Assembly: GCA_963665845.2 (NCBI GenBank)
Contig: OY762492.1
Coordinates: 2,976,001-3,040,000 of the forward strand
DNA: 64,000 bases
Reading direction: 5' to 3'
DNA from: Candidatus Poribacteria bacterium
GTDB taxonomy: Bacteria > Poribacteria > WGA-4E > GCA-2687025
Shown here: one piece after another, positions 32,615-53,469 of the stretch
How positions within the stretch are numbered: position 1 is the stretch's first letter
How the letters are laid out: every line of letters begins with the position of its first letter
Translations under genes and position numbers: made by a program
The notes under the pieces: generated by a model
The model's database searches: none
The model's input: only the letters and a program-made list of their open reading frames with translations
Told to the model about the DNA's origin: nothing

Positions 32615-34776
32615 CGCGACAGGCTTTAAAAACGCTGCGCGCCCCTTCGGTTCAGGCGCATGCGAGCTATGCGGTTTTGTGCGCCGTTTCGTTGGCGCTG
32701 GGATTGGGTCTACAGCTGGACGCGCGCCTGCATTTTGAGTACCGCAGCGCGCATGGCGTCATCGGATGGGTGAGCGTCCACGAGTATGCGAAGTCGCAGG
32801 AGACGCTGTATTATCTGCTCGCTGTCTTCGGCGTTCCGCTTTTCATTGCGCTGTGCCTGTTTGCTTGCGCGTTGTTTAGCCGATGGATGTCTCGGCAGAC
32901 GGGGCAGTCAGAGGCGTGGACGTTTCAGCGGTGCGCGTTCGCGTTGACGCCGCTGCTGCTCGCCTGTTTCTTTTTTAAGACGGCGGTTGGGTTAGCCTTG
33001 CTGTCGTTTTTGACGGTTTATACCGCGGGCTATTTTCTTTCGTCTAAGCCGCCGCCTGAAGCGAAACACGCCGATTCCGCTTCCCAGCCAAAAAAGAGCG
33101 CGCCCAAAACGCCCGCATGGAAAACGGCGCGACTCCTTTTAATATATGTCCTGATCCCGGCGCTTCTTTATCTGCTGTACTATTCGGGGGGAATCAACGG
33201 CGGCATCGACATGTTCCATGAGGGCGAACGGCTCGCGCCGCTGAACGAAATGCTGCGCGGCGGCGTTCCGTATCGGGACATCTACATTCAGCATGGGCTG
33301 TTTGAAAACGCTTTTTTGGCGCGCGTCGGGGCGGCGCTGTTCGGAGAGACGCTTGCCGGCGTTCGGCTGATGCAGCGGCTGCTCGGGCCGGTCGGTTATA
33401 TCGCGCTCTACATTCTCGGCGTTCAGTTATACCGCGGCTCATGGGCGTCCGCGCTGATACTTGTCATGATCGCGTCGGGGCATCATACAGGCGTCACGGC
33501 GCGGCATACGTTTGGGCTGTTGTGCGCCGCCATGTCGGTCGCCGCGCTTCAACAGGACGGAGCGCGCCGTCTTTGGATGATCGGCGCGTCGGGTTTGTGC
33601 GCCGGCTTCGCGTTCTGGCACAGCGCCGAGATCGGAATGTATTCGATCTGCGCCGTCGGCCTGTTCTGGACAATTCGCCTATTCGCCAAAGCGGAGACGA
33701 GAGACGAGCGGCTGCGCCCTGTTCTGTTTTTCAGCGCGGGGGTCGCTGCTGGGCTAGCTCCCGCCGCGCTCTGGCTGCTGCGGCATGGCGCGCTGGACGA
33801 CGCCGTCCGCAACACGTACATACAGCTCGCTTACCAGTTGGACACGTGGGGTTTGCCGTTCCCGCCGCTTGAGCGGGCGCTTCAGCCGTTCAAACAGCAT
33901 GGGCTGCTGGGCGGATGGAATGAGTTTATCGGAAGCGAGCCGCTGCGTTGGTATCTGCCGCCTGCCGCGTTGATCGCCGCCGGCGCCGTTCTCGTTCGGC
34001 GCGCTGTTCAAGGCGGTTTTTGGAAACATGAGGCATGCGTTAAGGGTTTGCTGACGGCGCTCTGTTTAGCCGCTTTTTTCCGCACGGCGCTGGGCAGGTC
34101 GGACGGCGGGCATCTGGTCTTCGGGTCCACCTTCTTTTGGCCGCTGCTACTGCTTCCGCTGGACAGGTCCGCCGCGGGCGTCTGGGACGCGCTTCGGGCG
34201 AAACGGAAGCTGACCGCGAGGCAGTGGGCATGGGCGGCGCTGCCGATACTGATCGCCGCGCTGTACGCCGGGCGCGTTCATCGCCCCGTTGCGGCGTTTC
34301 AAAGCCGATGGAACGGCATGCTCCAAAACCAGTTCAACCTGCCGAGAGCGGAGGAGGAGCTGACACGCGCCGGCCCGATCGACCTGCCGGACGATCAGGT
34401 TCAGCAGATTCAAGCGGTGGCGACGTTCATACAGGAGAACACGGCTCCCGGCGAACGCATTTTCGATTTCTCCAGTCAAGGCGCGTACTACTTCTTCGCC
34501 GACCGCCCCGCCGCGACCCGCTACCATCAGATCTGCTACGCCTCGGCGCCGGAGCTGGAGCGGGAAGTCATCAACGCGCTTGAAAAAGACCGGACGCGGC
34601 TTGTTCTGTATAAAACGGGCGGCTGGTTCGACACGGTGGACGGCATCGACAGCGAGCTGCGCTACCCCCAAATCGCGCTTTATTTATGCGATAATTATGA
34701 AGAGTACATTAATATCGATGGCGCGCGGGTATGGATGCGCATTCATGGGGCGGATTCCGCTCAACCGCCCTATTGA
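32599..34776 (+). CDS. Polytopic membrane protein, GT-C-like glycosyltransferase candidate
   Basis: About 12 or more hydrophobic segments, DMFHEGE..GGVPYRDI loop, and a C-terminal soluble domain (YYFFADRP). Confidence 0.6.
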   Translation: MGKRLTRQALKTLRAPSVQAHASYAVLCAVSLALGLGLQLDARLHFEYRSAHGVIGWVSVHEYAKSQETLYYLLAVFGVPLFIALCLFACALFSRWMSRQTGQSEAWTFQRCAFALTPLLLACFFFKTAVGLALLSFLTVYTAGYFLSSKPPPEAKHADSASQPKKSAPKTPAWKTARLLLIYVLIPALLYLLYYSGGINGGIDMFHEGERLAPLNEMLRGGVPYRDIYIQHGLFENAFLARVGAALFGETLAGVRLMQRLLGPVGYIALYILGVQLYRGSWASALILVMIASGHHTGVTARHTFGLLCAAMSVAALQQDGARRLWMIGASGLCAGFAFWHSAEIGMYSICAVGLFWTIRLFAKAETRDERLRPVLFFSAGVAAGLAPAALWLLRHGALDDAVRNTYIQLAYQLDTWGLPFPPLERALQPFKQHGLLGGWNEFIGSEPLRWYLPPAALIAAGAVLVRRAVQGGFWKHEACVKGLLTALCLAAFFRTALGRSDGGHLVFGSTFFWPLLLLPLDRSAAGVWDALRAKRKLTARQWAWAALPILIAALYAGRVHRPVAAFQSRWNGMLQNQFNLPRAEEELTRAGPIDLPDDQVQQIQAVATFIQENTAPGERIFDFSSQGAYYFFADRPAATRYHQICYASAPELEREVINALEKDRTRLVLYKTGGWFDTVDGIDSELRYPQIALYLCDNYEEYINIDGARVWMRIHGADSAQPPY

Positions 34777-34801
34777 CATGCCCGCGGTATAATGTTACAA
34801 T
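34773..34801 (+). promoter_or_regulatory. Near-consensus sigma70 promoter of the crystallin-flotillin cluster
   Basis: TTGACA-17 bp-TACAAT with an extended -10 TG. Confidence 0.7.
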
Positions 34802-34880
34802 CGCCTTAGCCTGCGCATAGAAGACGAAAGCGGCGCCAATGAAGCCGCTTCAGATTTGTTTATTGGTACGGAGAATCGAG

Positions 34881-36281
34881 ATGCCTGCAATCAATCCCCG
34901 CCTGATCCTTGAAGCGTATGAGCAGCCGAACTACGGCGGCGTCGCAGGCTATTTTGTCGACCCTGAACCGTCGCTCTGGCGCGTCGGCTTTCGCAACGGC
35001 TTCCGATCCGCCCGCGTCTACCGCGGACCTGGATACAAACGCGGACCGAACTACCGAATCGTTCTGTTCGACCGCTCCAACTACGAAGGGCGCAAACTGG
35101 TTCTCGCGCCCGGCTATTATCCCGACCTGCTGGACGTTGCGGTTCAGCACACGGGGCGGTTCCGCTCCTTCAACATCGCGCCGGATTACAACATCTCCGG
35201 TCCCGAATGGGGTACGGTGCCGGTCATCGTTCAGCTGTTCAACGACCCCGACTACAGGGGGCGGCATGCGACCGTTCTGCGCGATGTGCCGAACACGCAC
35301 AGCGAACTCGGCATGGCGGACACGATCAGCTCCGTCCGCGTCATCAAAGGCTCCGACTTTCCGCCGCAGGGCGCGAAGGTGCGCCTTTTCGAGCATCTGG
35401 ACTACGGCGGTCCGTTTCTTGAAATCGCCATGACAACCTACGACATGAAAAAGGAGATACCCGACCTGTCGATGCTTCCGATGGTCGGCGGGCAGTACGC
35501 CTCCACTTTCGGAAACGCGATCTCTTCGGTGCAGATCGAAGGATGGGCGTCGTCGGGAGAGTTTATGGAGATGGCGTACACCGACGAATTTGACCAAGCG
35601 GGAATGAACGAGGTTTGGCAATGGGTCGACCCGGCGGGCGGCGGAGAATGGCGCGAACGGCAAGGGTATCTTGAAATGCGCGCCGACCCCGGACAAGACC
35701 TGTGGCACGGCAACCCGCCCGGCAGCGGCGGCGATATGGACGCGCCGAGAATACTCATGGAGTACAGCGGCGACTTCGCCATCGAAACGCGGCTGCCGGT
35801 CACCCCGCAGCTGCGCGAACATGGCGGGCTGCTGGTCTGGAAAAGCCCAGGGCGTTTTTTGAGGCTTGAAAAAACATCCGGGGCGCATGCTTTCCGCGGC
35901 GCGGTGCGTTTTGAACGGCATGTGAACCGCGTCTTCCGCCTCGTCGGACGAGGACCGAACAACCTGATCCGAACGCGGCATCTCTACCTGCGGCTTGAAC
36001 GCCGGCGCAATCAGTTCACAGGCTTTGCCAGCCAAGACGGGCAGACCTGGGCAAACTGCGGCGTCACGAATGTCGGCATGGGCGATCCTGTTCAGATCGG
36101 ACTTCACGGACTCTGCCCCGGCAACATACCGCCGACCATCACCCGTTTCGACTACTTCCGCGTCTTCTCCAGAAAAGGCGAGGCGGTTCAGCTTCGGTTC
36201 CGACCGCAGGAGATCGAGCTGGACGAGCAGCAGGCAGACGCGCGGCGCATCGCCGCCCTGAGACGATTCATGGACGCATAA
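34881..36281 (+). CDS. Beta/gamma-crystallin domain protein with C-terminal ConA/LamG-like (DUF1349-type) domain
   Basis: Four Greek-key motifs (YEQPNYGG, FDRSNYEG, FNDPDYRG, FEHLDYGG; ADTISS, GNAISS), then DEF...APRIL...GDF.IET...YLRLERR...SQDGQTW. No signal peptide. Confidence 0.75.
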   Translation: MPAINPRLILEAYEQPNYGGVAGYFVDPEPSLWRVGFRNGFRSARVYRGPGYKRGPNYRIVLFDRSNYEGRKLVLAPGYYPDLLDVAVQHTGRFRSFNIAPDYNISGPEWGTVPVIVQLFNDPDYRGRHATVLRDVPNTHSELGMADTISSVRVIKGSDFPPQGAKVRLFEHLDYGGPFLEIAMTTYDMKKEIPDLSMLPMVGGQYASTFGNAISSVQIEGWASSGEFMEMAYTDEFDQAGMNEVWQWVDPAGGGEWRERQGYLEMRADPGQDLWHGNPPGSGGDMDAPRILMEYSGDFAIETRLPVTPQLREHGGLLVWKSPGRFLRLEKTSGAHAFRGAVRFERHVNRVFRLVGRGPNNLIRTRHLYLRLERRRNQFTGFASQDGQTWANCGVTNVGMGDPVQIGLHGLCPGNIPPTITRFDYFRVFSRKGEAVQLRFRPQEIELDEQQADARRIAALRRFMDA

Positions 36282-36288
36282 GAAAGGC

Positions 36289-36454
36289 AGACCTCATGCG
36301 TAAAGTTGGGACATTTGAGCGAATAATCGCTCTATTCATGGGAAAAAGCCGTCGCCTACCAGACCGTCATTCCCGCGCAAGCGGGAATCCAGAGTCTACC
36401 CCGAAACCGTTCGCGTTCACAACCAGAATTGTCTCAACTCTAAGGATGAGGTAA
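36289..36454. mobile_element. 166-bp MITE-like element (diverged ends)
   Basis: AGACCTCATGCGTAAAGTTGGGACAT ... GTCTCAACTCTAAGGATGAGGTAA. Confidence 0.7.
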
Positions 36455-36473: not shown

Positions 36474-38000
36474 ATGGCGGTCAATCCGCGCATCATTGTT
36501 GAGCTGTTTAGGGACAAGCACTTTCAGGGGACGAAGGCGACCGTCGTGGAGCCGATCGACGATCTGAAAGAGATCGGGATGGACGAAACGATTTCCTCCA
36601 TCAAGGTTTATCACGGACCGGGCGCCGCGGCGGCGCCGAATCAGCGCGTCGTTTTCTTTGAACAGACGCGGTATCAGGGGCGCAAGATCACGCTTCCGCC
36701 CGGTTTCTATCCGGATATTCATGCGATACCGTACAACTTCGGCGATGTTGTGTCCTCGCTCAACTTTTCCTCCTCCGCCCGGCTGACCGCGCCGAAATAC
36801 GGCTGGATGCCGCTCATCGTGGAGGTGTTTCAAGACCTGAACTACAAAGGGCGGCGCGCGACCATCATGCGCGACACCAGCTACATCGGCGAGATCGGCA
36901 TGAACGACCGCATCTCCTCCATGCGCGTCACGCGCGGACCGAACTTTCCGTTCACGGGATGCCGCGCCGTTTTCTTTCAGCATCCCGACTATGAGGGGCG
37001 CGAGCTGTCGATCGCCCTCGGACCGCGCGACTTCTCCGTCCAGATCTCCAACCTAGACGACTACAACCTACGGACGCGGGCGGGCGAAACGATACAGCAT
37101 ATCGACGCCGACCGCGGCATTGAGAATCTGACAAAAACAGGCTTCGACAACACGATCAGCTCCGTCAAAATACTGCCGACCGGCAACTTCAACGTCCTCG
37201 TCATCGAAGGCGATTCGCACACGCGCGAACCCGGCATTTTGGAGGATTTCCGCGAACATCAGGGCAACATCTTCCGCTTCGACCATGTCCGCATCAACCA
37301 GGACATAGAGAACAGCGGCTCGGCGGACGCGGTGGAGTTTGAATCGATTCTGCACCTGCTCGACAATTACGACATCATCTGGCTCACCTGGAACGCGCCT
37401 GGGCATAACGGCTCCTATTTTCTGGAGCCGTCTGGGGAACGCGCCATACAGGAGTGGGTCAAGGCGGGCGGAACGCTCTGGGCGTCCGCGATGGACGACA
37501 ACATTGAAACGGACGAAAAAGAGGGCAAGAAATGGAGAGGCGACTGGCTGCCCGTTTACCGGCACCCGGCGCGCGTTGTGAACTCGGAGGATGTGAAGGT
37601 CTGGATGACGCGGGAGGGGCGCAAGACGGGGCTTTTCACCTGGCCCGATAAAGTGGACCCGGAGCGCATTCAAACGGACGACCACTGGGTCACGACCGAC
37701 CCCTCGTACACGATTTTAGCCCGGCGCGACGACAACCAGGAGCCGATTGCCGCGCAGTTGCCTTGGGGGGACGGGCATTATATTCTGTTTGCCGTGGACA
37801 CCCGTTCGGATGAAGTTGCCGAGGCGGCGCGTCCGCTCATCGGCAACGCGCTCTGTTTTCTCGCCAGCTTGGCATGGGCGACCTCGCCGCGGCAGCCCCT
37901 GCGCGGTCGCGCGCGGTCGGCAGGGGGCATGTCCAGCGCCGGCGTCGTTGACCGGACAAGAAATCGACGGCCGCAACCGTATCGAAGGAGCGTCACATGA
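36474..38000 (+). CDS. Beta/gamma-crystallin domain protein with C-terminal class I GATase-like (flavodoxin-type) domain
   Basis: Four Greek-key motifs with DETISS, GDVVSS, NDRISS, DNTISS. C-terminal LDNYDIIWL...IQEWVKAGGTLW...PWGDGHYILF. Confidence 0.75.
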   Translation: MAVNPRIIVELFRDKHFQGTKATVVEPIDDLKEIGMDETISSIKVYHGPGAAAAPNQRVVFFEQTRYQGRKITLPPGFYPDIHAIPYNFGDVVSSLNFSSSARLTAPKYGWMPLIVEVFQDLNYKGRRATIMRDTSYIGEIGMNDRISSMRVTRGPNFPFTGCRAVFFQHPDYEGRELSIALGPRDFSVQISNLDDYNLRTRAGETIQHIDADRGIENLTKTGFDNTISSVKILPTGNFNVLVIEGDSHTREPGILEDFREHQGNIFRFDHVRINQDIENSGSADAVEFESILHLLDNYDIIWLTWNAPGHNGSYFLEPSGERAIQEWVKAGGTLWASAMDDNIETDEKEGKKWRGDWLPVYRHPARVVNSEDVKVWMTREGRKTGLFTWPDKVDPERIQTDDHWVTTDPSYTILARRDDNQEPIAAQLPWGDGHYILFAVDTRSDEVAEAARPLIGNALCFLASLAWATSPRQPLRGRARSAGGMSSAGVVDRTRNRRPQPYRRSVT

Positions 38001-41000
38001 GAATTGGAATTACGATCGGCGTCGCAGTGATCGCAGTCTTCTTCGCCGCTATCGCGCCGGAAAGGCTCGGCATGGATAATATGATCACTGACAAAACGAT
38101 CTCTGGATTGCTCAAGTACGGCATGTTGATCGGCTTGCCGGTCGTCGCGGCTCTGGCGGCGATGTACCGTTATGAAAAGCCGCGCGCCGATCAAGCCCTG
38201 GTGCGGACGGGGGGGCGCAAGGAAAAGATATCCATCACAGGCGGCCTCTGGGTCAATAAAATTATCCATGAAATACGCCAGATTTTTCTGGACACGGTGC
38301 GGCTGGACATTGTCCGCGTCGGGCCGGACGCGCTCATCACCAGCGATTTTTTAAGGGCGGACATTGAGGCGGCGTTTTTTATACGGGTGGAACCTGACCC
38401 GGACCAGATACTGCGGGCGGCGCAGAGCCTCGGCGAACGCACCATGACCGCCGAGGAGCTGACGGAGCTGCTTGAACAAAAACTGGAAGGCGCCCTGCGC
38501 ACCGTCGCCGCCGAGAAGGAGCTGCAAGACCTGCTTCAAAAACGCAAAGACTTTGGGGAAGCGGTTCAAGAATCGGTGAAAACCGACCTTGAAGAGAACG
38601 GCTTGACCCTAGAGACCGTCTCGCTCATCCGAGTCGACCAGGCGCCGCTGGAATCGATGGACGAGAACAACCAGTTTGACGCGCAGGGGATTCTCAAGAT
38701 CACCGAGATAACGCAAGAGAACCGATATGAAGCGGAGAAGATACGCCTGGAGGTTGACGTTCAGATCACGGAGGCGGAGACCAGTACCCAGGAAGAGAAG
38801 CTGGAGCTGAACAAGCGGCTCGCGTGGGCGGAGGCGGAGCAGGCGAAGGAGATCGCGACCTACGCCGCCGAGAAAGAGGCGGACACGCTTGCCTTCCAGT
38901 ATGAGCAGGATCAGCGGATTCAAGAGACGGAGCAGATGACGAAACTCGCCATTGAGCGCGCCACGATTGAGCAGGAACAGGGCGTGCTGGAGCGCGAGAT
39001 CGAGAAGCTGCTGCATGTGGAGACGGCGCGGATACAGCAGGAGCAGTTCGTTCAAGAGGCGGAGATTGAAAAGAACCTCAACGTGGAGCTGGCGCAAGTT
39101 GACCAGTCGCAGAAGGTTCAGATCGCCGAAGTGGAGCGGATGCTGGCGGTTGAAATGGCGCGGGTCGCTCAAGAGCAGACGGTGGAAGAACGCGAAATTG
39201 AGCGGAATCTGGGCGTTGAAACGGCTGAAATCGCGCAGCAAGAGGCGGTTCAGGTGCGCGATGTGGAGCGCGTCATGGCGACCGAGACGGCGCGCATTGA
39301 TCAAGAACGTGTCGTCCAAACGCGCGATATTGAAAAGAACCTCATCATCGAAACGGCGCAAATCGACCAGACGCGGCAGGTTCAGGAGGCGGAAATCGAA
39401 CGAAGCTTGCGCGTGGAAACGGCAAGAATCGCCCAAGAGCAGATCGTTAAAGAACGCGATATTGAGCGCGAACTCGGCATCCAGATTGCCCAGATTGCGC
39501 AGCAGGAGGGTACGCAGGTTCGAGAAATTGAGCGTGTCTTGGCAACCGAGACGGCGCGCATCGATCAGGAGCGGGTCGTCCAAACGCGCGACATCGAAAA
39601 GAACCTGATCATTGAGACTGCGCAGATCGATCAGACGCGCCAAGTCCAAGAGGCGGAAATCGAACGAAGCTTGCGCGTTGAAACGGCAAGAATCGCCCAA
39701 GAGCAGATCGTTAAAGAACGCGATATTGAGCGCGAACTCGGCATTCAAATCGCCCAGATCGCGCAACAGGAAGGAACGCAGGTCAGAGAAATTGAGCGGG
39801 TCTTGGCAACCGAAACGGCGCGCATTGACCAAGAGCGTGTCGTCCAAACGCGCGACATCGAAAAGAACCTGATCATCGAAACGGCGCAAATCGACCAAAC
39901 GCGGCAGGTGCAAGAGGCGGAAATCGAACGAACCTTGCGCGTCGAGACGGCGCGCATCGCCCAAGAGCAGATCGTTAAAGAACGCGATATTGAGCGCGAA
40001 CTCGGCATTCAAATCGCGCAGATCGCGCAGCAGGAAGGAACGCAGGTCAGAGAAATTGAGCGGGTCCTGGCGACTGAAACGGCGCGCATCGATCAGGAGC
40101 GGGTCGTCCAAACGCGCGACATCGAAAAGAACCTCATCATCGAAACGGCGCAAATCGACCAAACGCGGCAGGTGCAAGAGGCGGAAATCGAACGAACCTT
40201 GCGCGTGGAAACGGCAAGAATCGCCCAAGAGCAGATCGTTAAAGAGCGCGATATTGAGCGCGAACTCGGCATCCAGATCGCGCAAATCGCGCAGCAGGAA
40301 GGAACGCAGGTCAGAGAAATTGAGCGGGTCTTGGCAACCGAAACGGCGCGCATCGATCAGGAGCGGGTCGTCCAAACGCGCGATATTGAAAAGAACCTGA
40401 TCATTGAGACGGCGCAAATCGACCAAACGCGCCAAGTCCAAGAGGCGGAAATCGAACGAACCTTGCGCGTCGAGACGGCGCGCATCGCCCAAGAGCAGAT
40501 CGTTAAAGAACGCGATATTGAGCGCGAACTCGGCATCCAGATCGCCCAGATCGCGCAACAGGAAGGAACGCAGGTTAGAGAGGTTGAGCGGGTCCTGGCA
40601 ACCGAGACGGCGCGCATCGATCAGGAGCGGGTCGTCCAAACGCGCGACATCGAAAAGAACCTGATCATAGAGACGGCGCAAATCGACCAGACGCGGCAGG
40701 TTCAAGAGGCGGAAATCGAACGAACCTTGCGCGTTGAAACGGCAAGAATCGCCCAAGAGCAGGTCGTTAAAGAGCGCGATATTGAACGCGAACTCGGCAT
40801 CCAGATCGCGCAAATCGCGCAGCAGGAAGGAACGCAGGTTAGAGAAATTGAGCGTGTCTTGGCAACCGAAACGGCGCGCATCGATCAGGAGCGGGTCGTC
40901 CAAACGCGCGACATCGAAAAGAACCTGATTATCGAAACGGCGCAAATCGATCAGACGCGCCAAGTTCAAGAGGCGGAGATCGAACGAACCTTGCGCGTTG

Positions 41001-42151
41001 AAACGGCAAGAATCGCCCAAGAGCAGATCGTTAAAGAACGCGATATTGAGCGCGAACTCGGCATCCAGATCGCGCAGATCGCGCAACAGGAAGGAACGCA
41101 GGTCAGAGAAATTGAGCGGGTCTTGGCAACCGAAACGGCGCGCATCGATCAAGAGCGGGTCGTCCAAACGCGCGACATCGAAAAGAACCTCATCATCGAG
41201 ACGGCGCAGATTGATCAAACGCGCCAAGTCCAAGAGGCGGAAATCGAACGAACCTTGCGCGTTGAAACGGCAAGAATCGCCCAAGAGCAGATCGTTAAAG
41301 AACGCGATATTGAGCGCGAACTCGGCATTCAGATTGCCCAGATCGCGCAGCAGGAAGGAACGCAGGTTCGAGAAATTGAGCGCGTCTTGGCAACCGAAAC
41401 GGCGCGCATCGATCAAGAGCGGGTCGTCCAAACGCGCGACATCGAAAAGAACCTCATCATCGAGACAGCGCAGATCGACCAGACAAGGCAGGTGCAGGAG
41501 GCGGAGATCCAGCGCACCTTAGTGGTGGATACGGCGCGGATCAATCAGGAGATGATGGTCGCCTTGGTCGGCGAAGACAAAAACATCTCGATCTTCAACC
41601 GTCAGCGCGACACCGAATTGTCTGAACGGGACAAGCTGGAAGCCGAGGCCGAAAAGGCTGAAGCGATGGTGAACGTGTCGGCGGTGGAACGCACGCGCGA
41701 AGCGGAATGGCAGCGCGAAGTGGCGATCATCAACGCCGAGAGTCAGGCGCAGCCGATAGAGCGGCTTGCCGAAGCGATACTCGCCGAGGCGCAGGCAAAG
41801 GCGGAAGGCGAAATGGCGCACCTGCAAGCGCGCAACACCGCCGAACAGCGCGTCCTCGTACAAGAAGCGGTTATGGAGCTGATCGACCGCTCCCCCGACA
41901 TCGTTGAGCAGATGGTGAAGCCCGCCGAGCAGATCGACAGCATCAAAATACTGGACATGGGGCAAGGCGACGGACCCGCCAACCGAAACAACATGGGCAA
42001 ACTTGCCAACACGATACTGGACACGGGCGTTCTGTCGCCGATTTTGAAGGAGCTGTTCAACTTCGCCGATGTGGACGCGGAGCAGATTGCGGACAAGCTG
42101 ACCGAGTATCTGGGCGCGCTCATTCGTCCGCAGGCGCCCGACAACGACTAG
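37997..42151 (+). CDS. Giant flotillin-like SPFH protein with 88-aa tandem-repeat coiled-coil stalk
   Basis: Two N-terminal TM segments. SPFH domain (ALVRTGG, ALITSDFLRADIEAAFFIRV, DLEENGLTLETVSL, NNQFDAQG). Flotillin C-terminus (MVKPAEQIDSIKILDMG). Confidence 0.9.
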   Translation: MRIGITIGVAVIAVFFAAIAPERLGMDNMITDKTISGLLKYGMLIGLPVVAALAAMYRYEKPRADQALVRTGGRKEKISITGGLWVNKIIHEIRQIFLDTVRLDIVRVGPDALITSDFLRADIEAAFFIRVEPDPDQILRAAQSLGERTMTAEELTELLEQKLEGALRTVAAEKELQDLLQKRKDFGEAVQESVKTDLEENGLTLETVSLIRVDQAPLESMDENNQFDAQGILKITEITQENRYEAEKIRLEVDVQITEAETSTQEEKLELNKRLAWAEAEQAKEIATYAAEKEADTLAFQYEQDQRIQETEQMTKLAIERATIEQEQGVLEREIEKLLHVETARIQQEQFVQEAEIEKNLNVELAQVDQSQKVQIAEVERMLAVEMARVAQEQTVEEREIERNLGVETAEIAQQEAVQVRDVERVMATETARIDQERVVQTRDIEKNLIIETAQIDQTRQVQEAEIERSLRVETARIAQEQIVKERDIERELGIQIAQIAQQEGTQVREIERVLATETARIDQERVVQTRDIEKNLIIETAQIDQTRQVQEAEIERSLRVETARIAQEQIVKERDIERELGIQIAQIAQQEGTQVREIERVLATETARIDQERVVQTRDIEKNLIIETAQIDQTRQVQEAEIERTLRVETARIAQEQIVKERDIERELGIQIAQIAQQEGTQVREIERVLATETARIDQERVVQTRDIEKNLIIETAQIDQTRQVQEAEIERTLRVETARIAQEQIVKERDIERELGIQIAQIAQQEGTQVREIERVLATETARIDQERVVQTRDIEKNLIIETAQIDQTRQVQEAEIERTLRVETARIAQEQIVKERDIERELGIQIAQIAQQEGTQVREVERVLATETARIDQERVVQTRDIEKNLIIETAQIDQTRQVQEAEIERTLRVETARIAQEQVVKERDIERELGIQIAQIAQQEGTQVREIERVLATETARIDQERVVQTRDIEKNLIIETAQIDQTRQVQEAEIERTLRVETARIAQEQIVKERDIERELGIQIAQIAQQEGTQVREIERVLATETARIDQERVVQTRDIEKNLIIETAQIDQTRQVQEAEIERTLRVETARIAQEQIVKERDIERELGIQIAQIAQQEGTQVREIERVLATETARIDQERVVQTRDIEKNLIIETAQIDQTRQVQEAEIQRTLVVDTARINQEMMVALVGEDKNISIFNRQRDTELSERDKLEAEAEKAEAMVNVSAVERTREAEWQREVAIINAESQAQPIERLAEAILAEAQAKAEGEMAHLQARNTAEQRVLVQEAVMELIDRSPDIVEQMVKPAEQIDSIKILDMGQGDGPANRNNMGKLANTILDTGVLSPILKELFNFADVDAEQIADKLTEYLGALIRPQAPDND
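39302..41545 (+). repeat. Intragenic 264-bp tandem repeat, 8.5 copies
   Basis: Units start at 39302, 39566, 39830, 40094, 40358, 40622, 40886, 41150 and 41414 (half unit). Confidence 0.95.
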
Positions 42152-42157: not shown

Positions 42158-43120
42158 ATGGGGGCGTTAGCCGAGATCGTCGGGCATGAGACGCAGATAG
42201 AGTTGCTTCGGAGCGCCGTTGAATCGCGCAGTCCGGCGGAGGCGTATCTGTTTGCGGGTTTGCCGGGCGTCGGGAAAAAGACGCTGGCGCTCGCCTTTGC
42301 CGCGGCGCTCAACTGCGAGGAGTCGGCGGACGACGCATGCGGCGAGTGCGTCTCATGCAGAAAAGCCGTCTCGCTGAACCATCCGGACGTTCGCCTCTTT
42401 CAACCGGACGGCGCCGTTTTTAAGGTGGATCAGGTGCGCGAAATACGCCGCCTGCTCACCTTTCAACCGATGGAGGCGCGGCGCAAAGCGTATGTGTTGA
42501 CCGACGTGGAAACGATGCGCGCCGAAGCGGCGAACGCTTTTTTGAAGTCGCTGGAGGAGCCGCCCGGCGCGACGACGATTATCCTGACAACCTCCAACAT
42601 CAACGCGCTGCTGCCGACGATACTATCCCGCTGCCAGATTTTGAAGCTGCTGCCGGCCTCCATGGAGACGCTGACGGCGGCCCTCGCGGAGCGCGGCATG
42701 GAGGAAGCGGAGGCGCTGGCTCTCGCGCGGCAGTCCGGCGGACGGGCGGGGCGCGCTTTTCAAGCGATGTCCGCCAAACAAAGCGCCGGCGCGGACGAGC
42801 AGATCGAAGCGCTGCGGCAGGCGGACGAGCTGGACGCCTTCCGTCTGGCGGAGAGCTGGCAGACGCGGCCTGAACAGCTGGAGGATCTGATGGCGTCGCT
42901 GCGGCGGGCGCTTCAGTGGCGCGTCGGGATTAAGCGGGAGGAATGCTCCGTCGCGCTGGCGGCGTTCGCGCGCGGCGAGACGGAGCGGTCGCTTCAACGC
43001 AAAATGCGCGCCGTCATGGAGGCGCAATACAGGCTCAAACGGAACCTGAACGGCGCGCTTGTGATGGAATGCCTCGCCTTTCAGCTGCTGGCGCCGCCCG
43101 GCGGACAGCGGCGCCGTTAG
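42158..43120 (+). CDS. holB: DNA polymerase III subunit delta'
   Basis: AYLFAGLPGVGK, C...ACGECVSC zinc site, HPDV, AANAFLKSLEEPP, LLPTILSRC. Confidence 0.92.
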   Translation: MGALAEIVGHETQIELLRSAVESRSPAEAYLFAGLPGVGKKTLALAFAAALNCEESADDACGECVSCRKAVSLNHPDVRLFQPDGAVFKVDQVREIRRLLTFQPMEARRKAYVLTDVETMRAEAANAFLKSLEEPPGATTIILTTSNINALLPTILSRCQILKLLPASMETLTAALAERGMEEAEALALARQSGGRAGRAFQAMSAKQSAGADEQIEALRQADELDAFRLAESWQTRPEQLEDLMASLRRALQWRVGIKREECSVALAAFARGETERSLQRKMRAVMEAQYRLKRNLNGALVMECLAFQLLAPPGGQRRR

Positions 43121-46100
43121 GGGCTTCTGCCGGCGTCCCAGACGCGAATCGCGCTTCCGCCTCCGCTGACAAGCCTCAACCCGTCCGGCGAAAAGGCGAG
43201 CGAGCGAACCCTGTCCGTGTCTCCTTTGAACGTTTGGAGACGCTTGCCTGTCTCGGCGTCCCAGACGCTTATCGTTTTGTCGTAGCCGCCGGCGGCAAGC
43301 TTGGCGCCGTCCCGCGAATACGCCACAGCGTAGATAGAGGACGGACCCCTTCTGAACGCATGCAGCTGCTCTCCTGTCTCGGCGTCCCAGACATAGACCG
43401 CGCCGTCTCGGCCGGCGGTGGCGATCTTGGAGCCGTCCGGCGAATACGCCGCCGAATAAACTTCGAGCCGATGCCCTCTGAGCGTTAGGAGAACGCCGCC
43501 TGTTTCGACATCGAAGATGTACACTTTATGGTCGGAGCAGCCGGCGGCGATCCTGGAGCCGTCTGGAGAATAGGCGGCGGTACGGACGCCTGAAGACGCC
43601 GCGAAGGTTTTTAAAAGCGCTCCGGTCTCGGCGTCCCAGACGCGTACCGTGCCGTCGTAGCTGCCGCTGGCGATCCTGGAACCGTCCTGTGAATACGCCG
43701 CCTCCGTAACCGAGTGTGTATGCCCCTTGAGCGTATGCAGAAGCGCGCCGGTCTCGGCGTCCCAGATGCGTACCGTCTTGCCGGCGCCGCCGGCGAGCCT
43801 GGAACCGTCCGGAGAATAGACGCTGCCCGAATGCCCTTTGAGCGTTCGCAGCTCCTCGCCTGTATTGGCGTCCCAGATGCGAACCGTCGTGCCGACGCGG
43901 CCGGCGATCTTGGAGCCGTCCGGCGAATAGACTGCCGCCGCATGCGACGCCTCCCCGTTTCCTCTTAAAACGGCTCTCAAAGCGGGATCGTTGAGATAAA
44001 TGTTGGACGCGGCATTGTCCCCGACGGAGCTGAGCGGAACGCTCACCTCAACCGCGGTCTGCCCTGACGGTTCGATGATCGCTCTGTAGATGGAGCCGAC
44101 GCCTTGAAAGCCGCGGACGCTGCCGTATTTGACAGAGATGTCCTCATGCGTGAAGCCGTCCGCGACGCCGCTAAAGGCGATCGTTACCTCAAACGGAATC
44201 TGCATCCCTTTTTCAGGTCCGCTCACCGTCACGGTTAACGGCGGCGCCGGCTCCGCCTTCAGCCGCCAAATGCGCATCGCTTGATCGTCTCCCGCGCTCA
44301 CAAGCGCGCGTCCGTCCGGGGAGATGTCCACCGCGCGGACGGCGCCGTTATGCGCCTTGTATGTTTGCGCCGGCTCGCCTGTTTCGGCGTTTAAGAGGCG
44401 AATCATGCCGTCCTCCCCGCCGTCGGCGAGCGCGTTGTCTTCAAAATGATCGGCTAAATACGCCTCCCCAGAAGCGCCGGTCAATGTGCGAATCGCTTCG
44501 CCGGTCGAAGCGTCCCAGACGCGAACCGCCCCGTCCTCTCCCGCAGAGACGAGCGACTTGCCGTCGGAGGAAAAGGCGGCGAATGGTACGGCGCCGGAAT
44601 GCGCTTTGATCGTTTGAAGAATAACCCCTGCCGCGGGGTTCCAGATATGGATGGAGCCGTCCGCCCCTCCGCTGACAATCATCGTTCCGTCCGGCGAATA
44701 TGCGGCGGTATGGACGGCGCCCGTAGACCCCTTCAGCGTTAGGAACCGCTTGCCGGTTTCGGCGTCCCATAGATGTATCGCGCCGTCCGCCCCGCCGCTG
44801 ACAATCTCGGCGCCGTTGGGCGAATACGCGGCGCACAGTACGGAACCTGTATGCCCCGTCCATTCCGCCTTCAAGAGGAGGCAGGCGGCGTAGATGTTGG
44901 AGGGGAGATGGCTGCCTGCGGCGTTTGCGGGAACTTTGACCCGCGTGTAGTCGGCGCCGATGGGCTGAATGAGCGCCTGATACGCGGCGCCAGAACCGCT
45001 TAGGCTGACAACCTTTCCGTTCACCGCCTCAATGTCGGACGGCTCAAAGCCGCTGACCGGTTCGCTAAAGACGATGTCGGTTGTAAAGGCGCCGTCAACG
45101 ACATCGTCGGGTCCGCTCACCTTCACCGTCAAGGGCGGAGGCGGCGGTTCGCCCGCTTTGACCGTCCAAAGCCGAACCGAGTTGTCCGAGCTGCCGCTGG
45201 CAAGCATGAAACCGTCCGGCGAAAAGGCGATCGAAAGTACCTCATCCGTATGCCCTTCATATGTTTGCAGCGGTTTGCCGGTTGCGGCGTCCCAGATTCG
45301 CGCCGTTTTGTCTTCGCTTCCGCTGGCGATCATGGAGCCGTCCGGCGAAAAGGCGGCGGATCGAACCTTGTCGGTATGCCCTGTGAGCGTGCGGATCGTT
45401 TCGCCCGTTTTGAGTTCCCAGATCCGAACGGCGTCAGTCTCTCCGGCGCTGGCGACCAGTTCGCCGTCCGGCGAAAAGGCGACCGTATGAATGGAACCAA
45501 AAGGATCGTTGAACGCGCGGATCGTCTCGCCCGTCTCGGCGTTCCAGATGCGTACCGCGCTTCGGCTTGCGCTGGCGAGCATAGACCCGACCATCGAAAA
45601 GGCGACGATATTGACCTCGTCGGAATGCCCTGTGAGCGTTCGCAGATGCTCCCCTGTGGCGGCGTCCCAGATGCGTATTGTTTTATCGTCGCTTGCGCTG
45701 GCGAGCATGGAGCCGTCCGGCGAATAGGCAACCGAACGCACATAATCGGAATGCCCTGTGAGCGTTCGGATTATTTTGCCGGTTTCAGGACTCCAAATTT
45801 CAACGTTTTTGTGCGGATCAATGGCAAGCATGGAGCCGTCCGGCGAAAAGACGGGGAATCCCCTCTCTCTAATCTGTTGAAGCGTCTCGCCGGTTGCAGG
45901 GTTCCATATCATCGTCCATGGATAACCGCAGCTGGCAATCAGGGAGCCGTCCGGCGAAAAGGCGACCGAAACGACCCCATCGGTATGCTCGGTGAACGCC
46001 GCTTTCGCGGCTGGATAAAAGGAGTACGCGTTGGATTGGATGTTGTTCGCGGCGGCTTTCTTTGGAACGCGAACGCGCGCGGCGTCCAAGCCGGCGGGCT

Positions 46101-47262
46101 GGATCGTCGCCGTATAGAGATCGCCGTCTCCGCTGAAGTTCGTCACGGCGCCGTTTTCCACATGAATATCGGACTTCCGAAAGCCTTTCACACTCATGCT
46201 GAACTGGATCGTTATATCAAAGGTTCCCTCTCCGCTCGCCTTCCCGCCGTTGATCCGCACAGAGGGGCCGGACATAGTAGGCAGGTCTTTCCAGAGAAGA
46301 ATCGTCTTGCCGTCAACGCCTGCGAGCGTCGTACCGTCCGGCGAAAACGCTTCAGATGAAACAAAACCTGTACTCCCTTTGAACGTTCGGAGAAGCGCGC
46401 CCGAGTAGGCGTCCAAGATCTGATTGTCGTCGCTGACAGCAATCATTTTTCCGTCCGGCGAAAACGCGATGGACCAGCTGTTGCCGATATTCCCTTGGAG
46501 CGTTCGGAGAGGCGCGCCCGATTGGGCATCCCAGATGCGAATCGTGTTGTCGGCGCTTCCGCTGGCGAGCAGTGAGCCGTCCGGCGAAAAGGCGACCGAA
46601 TAGATGTTGTCGGTATGCCCTTCGAGCGTCTGGAGAATCTCGCCCGTCTCTGCGTCGCGGATGTGTACCGTATCGCCTCTGCCGCCGTTGGCGAGTTTGG
46701 TTCCGTCCGGCGAAAAGGCGGCGGAATAGACAACAGGCGTGAATCCTTCCCGCTCATTGCCTCGAAGCGTCAGCAGCCTGTCGCCGGTTTCAGGGTTCCA
46801 AACCCCGAACCTATGCCCTCCGCCGACGAGTTTGGTTCCGTCCGGCGAAAAGGCGATGGAAAGGTAACCTTCCGTATCGATTGTTCGCAGATGTTCGCCC
46901 GTTTCAGGGTCCCAGATGCGTATCGTCTCATCGCTTCCTCCGCTGGCGAGCATGGAGCCGTCCGGCGAATAGACGAGGGAACGGATGTTTTTTGTATGCC
47001 CTTCCAGCGTTTGCAGCGTCTCGCCTGTCTTCAGGTTCCAGATGCGTATCGTCTTGTCATCGCTTCCGCTGGCGAGCATGGAACCGTCCGGCGAATAAGC
47101 GGCAGCCCTGACCAAATCGGCATGCCCTTCCAGCGTTTGCGCCGCGTCAGGTTTGTTGAGATAAAAATAGGCGCTCACCCCCAACGCAACTGCCGCAAAG
47201 AGCAATCCGATACGCGCGGGCGTGGATGAGACGGCTTTTTTCATGCGCGTTTTCATCTTCAT
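43117..47262 (-). CDS. Exported WD40/Ig-like protein (7 WD-Ig-7 WD-Ig-about 5 WD-Ig-7 WD)
   Basis: GH...SPDG..LASGS.D.TIRIW repeats separated by F.ITI.FS..V.GF..SDI.V.NG Ig modules; N-terminal anchor. Confidence 0.9.
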   Translation of the reverse strand: MKMKTRMKKAVSSTPARIGLLFAAVALGVSAYFYLNKPDAAQTLEGHADLVRAAAYSPDGSMLASGSDDKTIRIWNLKTGETLQTLEGHTKNIRSLVYSPDGSMLASGGSDETIRIWDPETGEHLRTIDTEGYLSIAFSPDGTKLVGGGHRFGVWNPETGDRLLTLRGNEREGFTPVVYSAAFSPDGTKLANGGRGDTVHIRDAETGEILQTLEGHTDNIYSVAFSPDGSLLASGSADNTIRIWDAQSGAPLRTLQGNIGNSWSIAFSPDGKMIAVSDDNQILDAYSGALLRTFKGSTGFVSSEAFSPDGTTLAGVDGKTILLWKDLPTMSGPSVRINGGKASGEGTFDITIQFSMSVKGFRKSDIHVENGAVTNFSGDGDLYTATIQPAGLDAARVRVPKKAAANNIQSNAYSFYPAAKAAFTEHTDGVVSVAFSPDGSLIASCGYPWTMIWNPATGETLQQIRERGFPVFSPDGSMLAIDPHKNVEIWSPETGKIIRTLTGHSDYVRSVAYSPDGSMLASASDDKTIRIWDAATGEHLRTLTGHSDEVNIVAFSMVGSMLASASRSAVRIWNAETGETIRAFNDPFGSIHTVAFSPDGELVASAGETDAVRIWELKTGETIRTLTGHTDKVRSAAFSPDGSMIASGSEDKTARIWDAATGKPLQTYEGHTDEVLSIAFSPDGFMLASGSSDNSVRLWTVKAGEPPPPPLTVKVSGPDDVVDGAFTTDIVFSEPVSGFEPSDIEAVNGKVVSLSGSGAAYQALIQPIGADYTRVKVPANAAGSHLPSNIYAACLLLKAEWTGHTGSVLCAAYSPNGAEIVSGGADGAIHLWDAETGKRFLTLKGSTGAVHTAAYSPDGTMIVSGGADGSIHIWNPAAGVILQTIKAHSGAVPFAAFSSDGKSLVSAGEDGAVRVWDASTGEAIRTLTGASGEAYLADHFEDNALADGGEDGMIRLLNAETGEPAQTYKAHNGAVRAVDISPDGRALVSAGDDQAMRIWRLKAEPAPPLTVTVSGPEKGMQIPFEVTIAFSGVADGFTHEDISVKYGSVRGFQGVGSIYRAIIEPSGQTAVEVSVPLSSVGDNAASNIYLNDPALRAVLRGNGEASHAAAVYSPDGSKIAGRVGTTVRIWDANTGEELRTLKGHSGSVYSPDGSRLAGGAGKTVRIWDAETGALLHTLKGHTHSVTEAAYSQDGSRIASGSYDGTVRVWDAETGALLKTFAASSGVRTAAYSPDGSRIAAGCSDHKVYIFDVETGGVLLTLRGHRLEVYSAAYSPDGSKIATAGRDGAVYVWDAETGEQLHAFRRGPSSIYAVAYSRDGAKLAAGGYDKTISVWDAETGKRLQTFKGDTDRVRSLAFSPDGLRLVSGGGSAIRVWDAGRSP

Positions 47263-49403: not shown

Positions 49404-49547
49404 CAGGTACTCCTAGGCGGCTGACTCATTTTACCGCCTGCTGAATAAGATGTGAACCCGCATGAGAAAGGGACAGGGTTCTTCCTTGCCGCGCCCGCCG
49501 ACTGCGGAAATTTGCGCAACGCCAAACGCGCCCCGCGCCGCCTTCCT

Positions 49548-49722
49548 GTCATTCCCGCGTAAGCGGGAATCTTAGGCACAGAAGACGACATCTGCAGATG
49601 TCGAAACCCCCCTAGCCCCCCTTTTCAAGGGGGGAATCCGCCGCGCAAACCCCCCTAGCCCCCCTTTTCAAGGGGGGAATCCGCCGCGCAAACCCCCCTA
49701 GCCCCCTTTTCAAGGGGGAATT
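49548..49722. repeat. REP hairpin plus triple tandem CCCCCTTTTCAAGGGGG hairpin repeat
   Basis: GTCATTCCCGCGTAAGCGGGAATC, then three copies of about 41-42 bp of AAACCCCCCTAGCCCCCCTTTTCAAGGGGGGAAT. Confidence 0.85.
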
Positions 49723-49731
49723 CTCTGCTCC

Positions 49732-52700: not shown

Positions 52701-53349
52701 ACGCTACGGATTTGACATATAACCGAGTCCCCTCAAGCGTTCGGACATGCGCGCCTGTTTCGGCGTCCCAGATGCGAATCATATTGTCATTGCCGCCGCT
52801 GGCAAGCTGGACGCCGTCCGGCGAATACGCTACAGAATTGACCGAGTCCGTATGACCTGTGAGCGTTCGGAGATGCGCGCCGGTATCGGCGTCCCAGATG
52901 CGAATCGTATGATCGTCGCTGCCGCTGGCAAGCTGGACGCCGTCCGGCGAATACGCTACAGAATTGACCCAGTCAGTATGTCCCCAGAGTGTTTGTACCG
53001 CCGCGCCCGTCTCGGCGTTCCAGATCCGTACGGCGCCGTCCCAGCCGGCGCTGGCAATCCGCGTACTGTCCGGAGAATACGCGACGGAAGTAACCGGACC
53101 CGTATGACCTGTGAGCGTTCGGACATGCGCGCCCGTCTCGGCGTTCCAGATGCGAATAGACCGGTCTTGGCTGCCGCTGGCAAGATAGGCGCCGTCCGGA
53201 GAATACGCTACAGATTCGACAGAAGACGTATGCCCCGCCAGCGTTTTCACCGCTTGCGCCTGGCTGTTTTGGTTAAAAATGCCGGCGAACAGCAGCGGCG
53301 CCGTCCAGCAGAAAAGGCGGAACATCACAGAACGAAGCGGGCGTGTCAT
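49732..53349 (-). CDS. Secreted WD40 protein (14 WD-Ig-7 WD) with dockerin-like domain and FlgD-Ig/T9SS-like C-terminal domain
   Basis: 21 WD40 repeats; DANGDGVVDIADL / DVNGDGVVDIADV; NYPNPFNPETWIPF...WDGRN..GEPVASGVY. Start set at MTRPLR. Confidence 0.9.
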   Translation of the reverse strand: MTRPLRSVMFRLFCWTAPLLFAGIFNQNSQAQAVKTLAGHTSSVESVAYSPDGAYLASGSQDRSIRIWNAETGAHVRTLTGHTGPVTSVAYSPDSTRIASAGWDGAVRIWNAETGAAVQTLWGHTDWVNSVAYSPDGVQLASGSDDHTIRIWDADTGAHLRTLTGHTDSVNSVAYSPDGVQLASGGNDNMIRIWDAETGAHVRTLEGTRLYVKSVAYSPDSARLASGSLDNAIRIWDAETGARLRTLTGHTGYVNSVAYSPDGMQLVSASDDNAIRIWSAETGAHLRTIAGHTKSVNSIAYSPDGARLASASDDSAIRIWSAETSERLRTLAGHRFYVESVAYSPDSRQLASGSLDDTIRIWNAETGAHIRTLTEHTDWVHSVAYSPGGLWLASGSGDHTIRIWSADTGAHVRTLTGHTDSVHAIAYSPGGLWLASGSGDHTIRIWSAETGAHVRTLIGHTDSVNSIAYSPDGLQLASCGDDNTLRIWNAETGALIRSGENLRVSSVTYSPDGLQLAGGSWNNIAIWSAETGALIRTLEGHTSLVESAAYSPDGTRLASGSRDNTVRIWNAETGAMMQVFDRHTGSVNSAAYSPDGSFLASGSDDETIRIWSLKDAPVTAEISGPRGSVNSAFYVSITFSAAVDGFEASDIDAANGAVTNLSGSGNSYTAAIEPSSAGAVTVSIPAGAAGNNLASAVYTVHYAPPRVLTGHRGAVLAAAYSSDGNRIATASADDTVLIWDVNEETPLLELTEHTGDVRSAAFSPDGTMLAAGSADDTIRLWNAETGAHVRTLEGHEGDVYAVDYSPDGSAIVSASGDRTVRLWNANTGALIKTMTQHAGVVRTAAFSPDGTLIASGGADRTVRLWNAKTGKPLATMKKHGRTIYSVAFSPDGTVLASGSADETIRFWDVSSQSLLHTRTVGGTAGLLFSVAFSPDGSTLASGNQDGTVHLWASGNGRHKETLEGHTGTVYAVAYSPDGQALISGSRDRTLRFWSMPSPQLDANGDGVVDIADLAHIAANYGSGGGSGADVNGDGVVDIADVLLVVDALAGQAGAVAAAPALAAAREALSVPQVSAWLNDAQRLIVRSDSAKRGIAVLEGMLRSPRHVVSTNALLPNYPNPFNPETWIPFDLSEASRVKLTIYNSAGQTVRVLELGQLPAGAYRSRSRSAHWDGRNSLGEPVASGVYYVRIEAGSFTALRRMVVLK

Positions 53350-53469
53350 CAGGCTCTCCAAATCAGATCGACAGGTTGGTTCAGCGGACAAGCGTATGAT
53401 ACCGATTTGGACGCCGGCGGGCTATTTTAAATGCGGCTGCCGATTTTCAGCCTCATTCCGAATCCAGCC

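Follow-up and report, generated by a model that had tools for sequence, protein, structure and literature searches.

A YqiK-type flotillin from Poribacteria with a stalk extended by 88-residue modules, the probable wall of a membrane-anchored tube

The protein described in this study is, as judged from its Band_7 and Flot domains, a YqiK-type flotillin, a membrane-scaffold protein whose stalk of about 1050 residues has been extended by 88-residue modules and is predicted to form one helix. On balance, we consider it probable, if by no means certain, that these helices pack into a hollow, membrane-anchored tube facing the cytoplasm. In such an assembly, 16-44 identical subunits would stand side by side in a tube that is likely 100-160 nm long and about 6-17 nm wide, with the SPFH ring fencing a membrane patch and, if human flotillin can serve as a model, the C-terminal cap shutting the far end. 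Two near-opposite stripes of apolar and small residues would each bind one neighbour, and the stutter-free 11/3 register would hold radius and right-handed tilt constant, so that added modules would lengthen the cylinder rather than widen a dome. The structural step of this wall would be 11 residues, with 88 arising as a product of recombination between 264-bp units.

All coordinates refer to the forward strand of the window, the analysed stretch of 64,000 nucleotides on contig OY762492.1 of a Candidatus Poribacteria bacterium. The flotillin gene, whose start is immediately preceded by an RBS-like GAAGGAG, comprises the following features:

37997..42151, + strand, YqiK-type giant flotillin gene (1384 aa, 158.7 kDa, pI 4.6)
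37997..38167, + strand, pair of hydrophobic helices at the N-terminus, aa ~1-21 and ~35-57 (from hydropathy and two helices at this end of the ortholog model)
38192..38716, + strand, SPFH/Band_7 domain, aa 66-240 (PF01145, E 1.8e-16, 61.2 bits against a cut-off of 23.6)
38999..39328, + strand, five degenerate 22-mers, aa 335-444, of which the last four are the putative ancestral proto-module found in all orthologs
39329..41440, + strand, eight full 88-aa (264-bp) modules, aa 445-1148
41441..41545, + strand, partial ninth module, shared by orthologs without extra modules
41735..42061, + strand, Flot domain, aa 1247-1355 (PF15975, E 1.5e-17, 64.3 bits against a cut-off of 27)

Both domains were recovered in Pfam searches of protein pieces; the entire 1384-residue protein gave no Pfam match because the repeat masks them. 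Together with the structural and sequence matches, they bear out the flotillin identity proposed in a first-pass annotation of this DNA. The PDB sequence matches of an ortholog profile were flotillin-1/2 chains only (5/5), and database relatives bear the names YqiK or SPFH-domain protein. Foldseek matches included prohibitin, flotillin, HflK/C, stomatin, erlin and vault cages, whose coverage hardly extends beyond the SPFH domain and the start of the helix (TM by query 0.14-0.18), and a stalk-only model found none, a bare helix being an uninformative query. The N-terminal piece had 0 phmmer matches in the PDB, PDB sequences yielded no YqiK-type cage with either phmmer or the ortholog profile, and the pieces reached at most 46 bits against the FloT equivalog NF058507, whose cut-off is 700. 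The hydrophobic N-terminal helices are the predicted membrane anchor, and by analogy the SPFH domain would face the cytoplasm, an orientation predicted for YqiK in a passage of PMC10434171. The Flot domain would correspond to the region that in human flotillin contains the wall end, a cap helix and the strand forming the roof barrel.

The far end of the protein bears on a reading that we regard as improbable, in which the cap binds a second structure, for example a polar granule or another membrane, and the number of modules sets its distance to the cell membrane in the manner of a molecular ruler or tether. Its C-terminal tail helices are kept across all orthologs, human flotillin cages often attach a second membrane at their narrow end (10.1101/2024.05.09.593390), and the cells of Poribacteria, with a width of 0.9-1.2 um, carry bipolar granules of 168 nm (PMC5087111), a scale resembling that of the tube. 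However, the tail is only moderately amphipathic, its maximum moment of 0.61 not exceeding that of windows inside the repeat, and the granules are not evidently membrane-bound (PMC5087111).

The repeat itself was detected by TRF between positions 39266 and 41520 as 8.5 copies of a 264-bp period with 91% matches and no indels, corresponding to the eight full modules and the partial ninth. It thus has the composition described in the first-pass annotation, namely 8.5 near-identical 88-residue units built of 22-mers, with about five degenerate 22-mers ahead of them. Its further claims of Ile (once Val) at each eleventh residue, of a repeat without Pro and of copies differing mainly at synonymous sites were equally reproduced: the first residue of the 11-mers is Ile in 63/64 and Val in 1/64 cases in the eight full units, Pro is absent between aa 218 and 1252, and 41 of the 47 variable nucleotide columns among the eight copies lie at codon position 3. 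Pairs of copies, all distinct in DNA, differ by 11-27 nucleotides and 0-2 amino acids (mean pS 0.296, pN 0.0067, pN/pS about 0.02), and this comparison of coding sequences shows the amino acid sequence of the modules to be strongly conserved.

The repeat is confirmed as real, and the evidence supports, without proving, the exact number of its copies. An inflation of the copy number in this assembly, the objection anticipated in the first-pass annotation, appears very improbable and left no sign. Each copy is distinguished from the others by the nucleotide differences given above, three runs contain mismatch-free unitigs for single copies at about the depth of the flanks, the array sits in a 3.95-Mb contig, and independent assemblies contain 7, 6 and 5 units, with at least 7 in another family. 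Against this stand two identical copies in the sister genome G001 and the fact that the array is spanned by none of the contigs or unitigs listed, the best runs possibly being the source of the assembly itself.

Models of the stalk support its helical nature. AlphaFold predicts residues 357-576 as a single unbroken helix (pLDDT 92.3) and the shortest ortholog as helical across most of residues 213-589 (pLDDT about 65), whereas in the full ortholog model (pTM 0.30) the helix is broken at two low-confidence points. From the ortholog model and the domain order of flotillins, we place the predicted wall helix at aa ~228-1280, which amounts to about 1050 residues and makes the stalk four to five times as long as is usual. 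The continuous helical stalk proposed initially is therefore upheld at the level of prediction, and the proposed length of about 130 nm remains within the 100-160 nm expected if a barrel forms, but the count of about 860 residues on which it was based was too low. A beta-solenoid, a reading prompted by the many Ile, Val and Thr residues, was dropped in view of the helix predicted by AlphaFold.

Although the exact period of 11 residues claimed in the first-pass annotation holds, the coiled coil that its hendecad assignment implied does not. A canonical hendecad coiled coil has an apolar core at positions a, d, e and h, and the best such register is filled to 0.25/1.0/0.25/0.5, with a hydropathy power at period 11/3 (176) far below that at 11/4 (1436) and 11/2 (833). 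Instead, large apolar residues occupy 11-mer positions 1 (0 deg) and 7 (229 deg), with Leu at position 5 in odd units, and Ala is found at position 10 (164 deg). The hydrophobic residues thus line up in two nearly opposite stripes and not in a coiled-coil core, an arrangement that suits the wall of a side-by-side barrel. Their separation is soft, ranging from about 130 to 200 deg depending on the weighting of the Ala stripe, and of the three angular moments the third is the largest (1.0), ahead of the second (0.65) and the first (0.48). The same 5/6 spacing was found in 24/27 periodic distant flotillins, the remaining 122 of the 149 sequences given having been dropped because they lacked periodicity or an anchor. 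For a ring of 12-44 helices, two interfaces 150-172 deg apart are needed, compared to 90 deg in a tetramer. The 11/3 register is compatible with barrels made up of 16-32 helices, with 3.62-3.65 residues per turn, and also with a near-straight tetramer at 3.627 residues per turn, so that periodicity alone cannot select the barrel. For 16-44 side-by-side helices, the computed mass is 2.5-7 MDa with subunits of 159 kDa.

The same features could be read differently, in that the SPFH ring and cap oligomerize while the stalks remain unsealed, as an open flexible sheet or as small right-handed bundles serving as spacer or filament, which we consider unlikely. Besides the tetramer permitted by the 11/3 register, the net charge of -6 per module, the narrowness of the apolar stripes and the open nautilus-like form that HflK/C also adopts (PMC12048511, and the title of a PDB entry) would agree with this arrangement. 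Against it speak the missing a/d/e/h core and the weak first angular moment, the two-column pattern common to the short relatives (24/27) and a conservation that extends along all 88 module positions.

The modular growth of the stalk is reflected in its orthologs, whose lengths had been predicted to differ in steps of 22 or 88 residues. In 40 of 44 complete genome orthologs the stalk measures exactly 384+88n residues, with each n from 0 to 8 present, and the remaining four are short by one 11-mer. The fit holds for 24/28 and 16/16 genome orthologs in the two sets (after leaving out two open-ended loci from the first, and from the second 4/20 genome loci, two with N runs, one frame-broken and one truncated, and 7/14 metagenome loci) and for 235/237 database proteins, 14/251 and 60/149 proteins without anchor having been dropped from the length survey. 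The length step across the family as a whole is 11 residues, and 88 is probably the step of recombination. A phase-variable repeat found no support, the complete members of seven 90% clusters holding one copy number each (93 of 113 members listed), although the clustering may hide other lengths.

The ladder also lends itself to a reading that is compatible with the tube on structure but its rival on function, and to which we assign a substantial, though less than even, chance. In this case, a tube forms whose length is nearly neutral, with unequal crossing-over of 264-bp units shifting the copy number and selection maintaining the wall sequence and the 11-residue register. DNA identity is higher at lag 264 (0.66-0.88 for n>=1) than at lag 66 (0.49-0.55), module copies are homogenized within genomes and lineages, modules were gained and lost repeatedly on the tree and within one genus, which holds orthologs of 678, 766, 854 and 942 residues, and deletions of 11 residues in four genomes and of 22 in one database protein are tolerated. 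The variation of copy number from 0 to 8 with an unchanged operon likewise implies that exact length may matter little. Conversely, the family of the host carries n=5-8 in 4/4 complete members as opposed to n=0-2 in most other Poribacteria, the 90% clusters each keep their copy number, a 159-kDa subunit in an assembly of several MDa is costly, and conservation across families is higher in the opening 22-mer of the module (0.84) than in the one that follows it (0.62).

The genomic surroundings of the flotillin gene contain two genes coding for crystallin domains:

34773..34801, + strand, Sigma-70-like promoter match, 11/12 with extended -10 (consensus match only)
34839..36281, + strand, second crystallin-domain gene (crystallin and DUF1349)
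36474..38000, + strand, partner gene with beta/gamma-crystallin domains and a C-terminal domain, 508 aa (PF00030, E 1.9e-17)

The stop of the partner gene overlaps the flotillin start (ATGA), and this gene lies upstream of the flotillin in 29/29 and 33/34 ortholog loci and in 0/10 paralog loci. Its product has no hydrophobic anchor, and in the ESM Atlas it led to its own Poribacteria cluster (0.96) alone, other leads scoring under 0.9. The second crystallin-domain gene, the first gene of the likely operon, adjoins it in only part of the orthologous loci; the promoter scan returned 3 sites against 2.3 expected in shuffles, the listed match being the sole 11/12 site. With crystallin genes and holB as neighbours, the canonical NfeD-SPFH2 operon (yqiJK, yuaFG) was excluded, as no NfeD or YqiJ gene is found in the operon, NfeD matches lying about 69 kb away and YqiJ_OB being absent from the 90%-complete genome. 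The translationally coupled crystallin-domain protein would be the likely cargo or partner that replaces the NfeD/YqiJ of ordinary bacterial flotillins. In two RNA-library runs of one study, contigs of a roughly 95%-identical relative cover parts of the operon, which by itself does not establish transcription.

If a tube forms, it would be taller than any other SPFH assembly that these searches brought up. It would also be a candidate subcellular structure of the Poribacteria, a phylum in which compartmentation has long been suspected, and could serve as a ready scaffold for building protein tubes whose length can be programmed. The ortholog series differing by 0 to 8 wall modules makes the relation between helix length and the height of SPFH cages testable and could reveal how the sequence encodes a large helical barrel, with two stripes on an 11/3 helix. 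A bolder proposal, which we put forward as doubtful, is a length-coded nanotube, a sealed SPFH compartment of up to about 150 nm where each module provides about 11-13 nm of wall and a docking ring for the co-translated crystallin-domain protein, and where the number of modules determines how much a new membrane-attached bacterial organelle can hold or how far it reaches; its length would then reach a tenth or more of the cell width. If length is neutral, the array offers a clean example of concerted evolution in a structural repeat.

Known SPFH cages are squat domes about 20 nm high, and right-handed hendecad (11/3) coiled coils are exemplified by tetrabrachion, with which the giant flotillin shares the exact 11-residue period but from which it differs by two separated stripes in place of a continuous a/d/e/h core. 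Among solved structures, the human flotillin-1/2 cage (PDB 9BQ2, 9L3G) is the best PDB sequence match and second in Foldseek, sharing the SPFH domain, a long heptad-free helix and the Flot cap. Its 44 subunits form a right-handed barrel in which heptad-free helices stand side by side (10.1101/2024.05.09.593390), with a wall of 189 residues bent at pi/3-10 motifs (PMC13000311). In contrast to the 186-189 residues of the human wall, to its lipid anchor and to the bends that shape its dome, the Poribacteria protein has about 1050 residues, predicted transmembrane helices and a strict tandem register and, being encoded by a single flotillin gene, is probably a homo-oligomer. Major vault protein similarly places a long side-by-side helix after an SPFH-like domain, with weak Foldseek matches (E 1e-5) and no Pfam match to its repeat domains in the whole protein or pieces. 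The term vault-like used in the first-pass annotation overstates the width, since 16-44 side-by-side helices would give a tube of about 5-17 nm, a membrane-anchored single half that is longer and far narrower than the 70 x 40 nm vault, whose width is about 40 nm (PMC3762200). The statement that typical flotillins are much shorter needs qualification, as giant SPFH2b flotillins of 800-1000 residues, grown by expansion of the coiled-coil region, have already been described (PMC2636767). With these SPFH2 'p-flotillins', which include E. coli YqiK, the protein shares by description the expanded coiled-coil region, whereas its 1384 residues exceed their size range and its discrete, homogenized 88-residue modules and crystallin-domain partner in place of NfeD/YqiJ set it apart.

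The window contains a giant flotillin gene with an 88-residue tandem repeat in its stalk, directly preceded by a crystallin-domain gene (nucleotides in window coordinates, residues in the protein):

36474-38000, plus strand: crystallin-domain partner gene, overlapping the flotillin start by ATGA
37997-42151, plus strand: giant flotillin of 1384 residues, the whole repeat lying inside one open reading frame
Residues 335-444: five degenerate 22-mers preceding the full units
Residues 445-1148: eight full 88-residue units, followed by a partial ninth

The array has a period of 264 bp and 8.5 copies, with 91% matches and no indels (TRF). Isoleucine occupies 63 of the 64 places at position 1 of the 11-mers in the full units, and residues 218-1252 are free of proline. 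Among the eight DNA copies, 41 of 47 variable columns are third codon positions, pairs differ by 11-27 nucleotides but only 0-2 amino acids, and mean pS and pN amount to 0.296 and 0.0067. TRF and copy comparison agree with the first-pass annotation, which had described 88-residue units with isoleucine (once valine) at every 11th residue, no proline and mostly synonymous differences between the DNA copies. The array is probably not an assembly artefact, and we regard an inflated copy number as highly improbable since no two of the eight copies are identical, the window sits on a 3.95-Mb contig of a three-contig genome and independent assemblies of relatives contain 7, 6 and 5 units. Read depth points the same way: three runs contain short unitigs that agree perfectly with individual copies, their depth being close to that of the flanks (for example, 16-22 compared to 17-18 in run X1), although unitig depth at the array does not equal copy number, the runs stem from one study that may be the source of the assembly, and no piece among those listed spans the array.

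Measured between two fixed anchors, the SPFH end and the cap strand, stalk length follows a ladder of 384+88n residues, where n is the number of extra modules, in 24 of 28 complete orthologs including that of the window (1088, 1000, 912, 824, 648, 560, 472 and 384); this set leaves out two open-ended loci, and four members from a single genus have stalks of 461 residues, short by one 11-mer. A further search matched 150 of 176 genomes, and of 20 loci fetched for unusual lengths (two with runs of N, one frame-broken and one truncated being left out) all 16 complete ones obey the ladder, including one of 736 residues (n=4). Steps of 88 residues, one of the two sizes predicted, are borne out in both sets, and each n from 0 to 8 is found among complete genome orthologs, while G069, a genome of a different family whose locus contains runs of N, has at least seven units. 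Half of 14 metagenome loci are complete and all seven lie on the ladder, one being the same contig as in genome G003. Database searches were restricted to proteins of at least 761 residues, which excludes n=0; both anchors were located in 237 of 251, with stalks of 472 residues in 202, 560 in 33, and 450 and 470 in one each. In the eleven Poribacteria flotillin paralogs, the stalk measures 325, 347, 358 or 391 residues, the steps being other multiples of 11, and 56 of the 89 distant representatives that could be anchored (out of 149) share the same remainder modulo 11. These controls identify 11 as the family-wide step and 88 as particular to this ortholog group. The distant stalks have a median of 274 and a maximum of 574 residues, so that typical flotillins are indeed much shorter, the window stalk being four times the median. 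In the 895-residue relative P0259, it was not the 88-mer but another segment, closer to the N-terminus, that was copied again to lengthen the stalk, and at locus L091 of the single-contig genome G071 both flotillin and partner appear frame-broken, by sequencing error or decay. The whole genome of the window has seven Band_7 matches, and two short SPFH genes with open frames of 487 and 450 residues stand in tandem at G000:C1:656964-659026 (locus L070).

Unit identity is 97-100% inside one genome and 81-96% inside the window's family, but falls to 48-61% when that family is compared with others. Each window copy is 11-27 nucleotides from its sisters compared to 34-47 from any copy of a same-genus genome, which indicates concerted evolution. 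In all cases with n of at least 1, DNA identity is higher at a lag of 264 than at one of 66, favouring recombination in 264-bp steps, while the tolerated deletions of 11 and 22 residues show that 88 is not obligatory. A midpoint-rooted tree of the non-repeat parts, calculated without G069 and G070, indicates that modules were gained in the window's family and in a second genus, that they were lost down to n=0 on two or more separate occasions, and that n=1 was the likely ancestral state. In each of seven 90% clusters, with 93 of their 113 members listed, the complete members share one copy number, which speaks against a phase-variable repeat and for slow lineage change, although such clustering may conceal other lengths. 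Whether length itself is selected is a separate question from structure: neutral drift through unequal crossing-over is a serious contender, if somewhat the weaker one, and a module-level function would account for the stronger cross-family conservation of the first 22-mer (0.84) compared to the second (0.62).

Although a whole-protein Pfam search gave no match, pieces of the protein matched Band_7 (E 1.8e-16) and Flot (E 1.5e-17) above cut-off, and all five PDB matches of a profile of 34 homologs are flotillin-1/2 chains, upholding the original assignment; the relatives named in databases are annotated as 'YqiK' or as SPFH proteins of Candidatus Poribacteria. Basic residues come after two hydrophobic N-terminal segments, an arrangement that would place the SPFH domain in the cytoplasm, in agreement with the prediction for E. 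coli YqiK (PMC10434171). The crystallin partner, which has no hydrophobic anchor, lies upstream of the flotillin at 29 of 29 ortholog and 33 of 34 further loci (the exception begins at a contig end) and at none of 10 paralog loci within the approximately 1.5-2.4 kb of flank covered, and the first crystallin gene has a promoter consensus match of 11/12 in front of it. NfeD/YqiJ is the usual operon partner of SPFH2 genes (PMC2636767, in part), whereas the window flotillin adjoins no such gene and has the crystallin-domain gene instead. From this gene coupling, a physical link between both proteins may be inferred.

A crystallin and DUF1349 gene (34839-36281) is full-length beside the partner in some lineages only, and three more crystallin-domain paralogs are found elsewhere on contig C1. 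Between the two crystallin genes, 36290-36450 is a high-copy element (blastn finds 673 pieces across the genome and about 640 matches to the core), presumably of REP/MITE type, that is missing from related-strain contigs, where 36288 joins 36470. Downstream, a DNA polymerase III delta-prime gene (42158-43120) starts within 7 bases of the flotillin stop; it also adjoins the flotillin in the sister genome G001 and in G007 but was not seen at the other ortholog loci fetched. Three large minus-strand proteins with 126-bp repeats (43117-53391) we take to be WD40-type, the last ending in an EF-hand/dockerin-like motif and a sorting-like C-terminal domain. This region includes a palindromic array (49604-49718, 43 bp x 2.7) with 213 blastn pieces in the genome; a 223-bp tandem duplication of 99% identity follows at 53537-53993.

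AlphaFold predicts a single helix for residues 357-576 (pLDDT 92.3). Its model of an n=0 ortholog (mean pLDDT 63, pTM 0.30) comprises two N-terminal helices, the SPFH domain and a long helix broken at two places of low confidence; Foldseek matches comprise prohibitin, flotillin, HflK/C, stomatin, erlin and vault chains, mostly via the SPFH domain. Despite the hendecad periodicity pointed out at first, a classical hendecad coiled coil is not upheld, since the repeat lacks its a/d/e/h core and 11/3 hydropathy power is small. Instead, large apolar residues occupy 11-mer positions 1 and 7 (0 and 229 degrees on the 11/3 wheel), leucine position 5 in odd units and alanine position 10 (164 degrees), with charged columns in between, and the 5/6 spacing of apolar columns recurs among distant flotillins, in 24 of the 27 that are periodic. 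A helix within a large ring must contact its neighbours on two near-opposite faces, the calculated separation being 150-172 degrees for 12-44 helices compared to 90 degrees for a tetramer. At an assumed spacing of 9.8 Å, a strict 11/3 register is compatible with 3.62-3.65 residues per turn in barrels of 16-32 helices, and also with a near-straight tetramer. We somewhat favour a putative membrane-anchored assembly fencing off a membrane patch, in which stalk helices would pack side by side into a capped tube of constant radius that might hold or recruit the crystallin-domain protein. That the stalks form an open sheet (compare the open form of HflK/C, PMC12048511) or small bundles appears unlikely, and a tether or ruler to a second structure more unlikely still. 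As a barrel, the wall of about 1050 residues, rather than the 860 first estimated, would extend 111-157 nm at tilts of 45-5 degrees, or 90-124 nm if scaled from the human cage, in keeping with the length of about 130 nm originally suggested. PMC5087111 gives Poribacteria cells a width of 0.9-1.2 µm, at least a tenth of which the predicted tube would span, and describes bipolar granules of 168 nm in them.

A survey of hendecad protein families reportedly exists; within literature coverage outside subscription journals, we found no account of an 88-residue ladder or a tubular SPFH assembly, nothing joining hendecads with SPFH proteins and, among the papers listed, none that joined Poribacteria with flotillin, SPFH or crystallin. 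Giant SPFH2 proteins of 800-1000 residues with expanded coiled coils have been known since 2009 (PMC2636767, in part), and the fuller data behind that report may concern the window's lineage. New here are the top of the ladder, its complete series from 0 to 8, the controls parting steps of 11 from 88 and the two-stripe pattern. The predicted tube, with a calculated diameter of about 5-17 nm, would be far narrower than the 70 x 40 nm vault (PMC3762200, in part), so that the vault-like compartment once envisaged overstates its width. According to 10.1101/2024.05.09.593390 and PMC13000311, human flotillin forms a right-handed ring of 44 heptad-free helices, a cage 22 nm high with walls of 186-189 residues that bend at pi and 3-10 motifs. 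The helix predicted for the window protein is likewise free of heptads and its near-opposite faces would suit such a ring, but its wall would comprise about 1050 residues.
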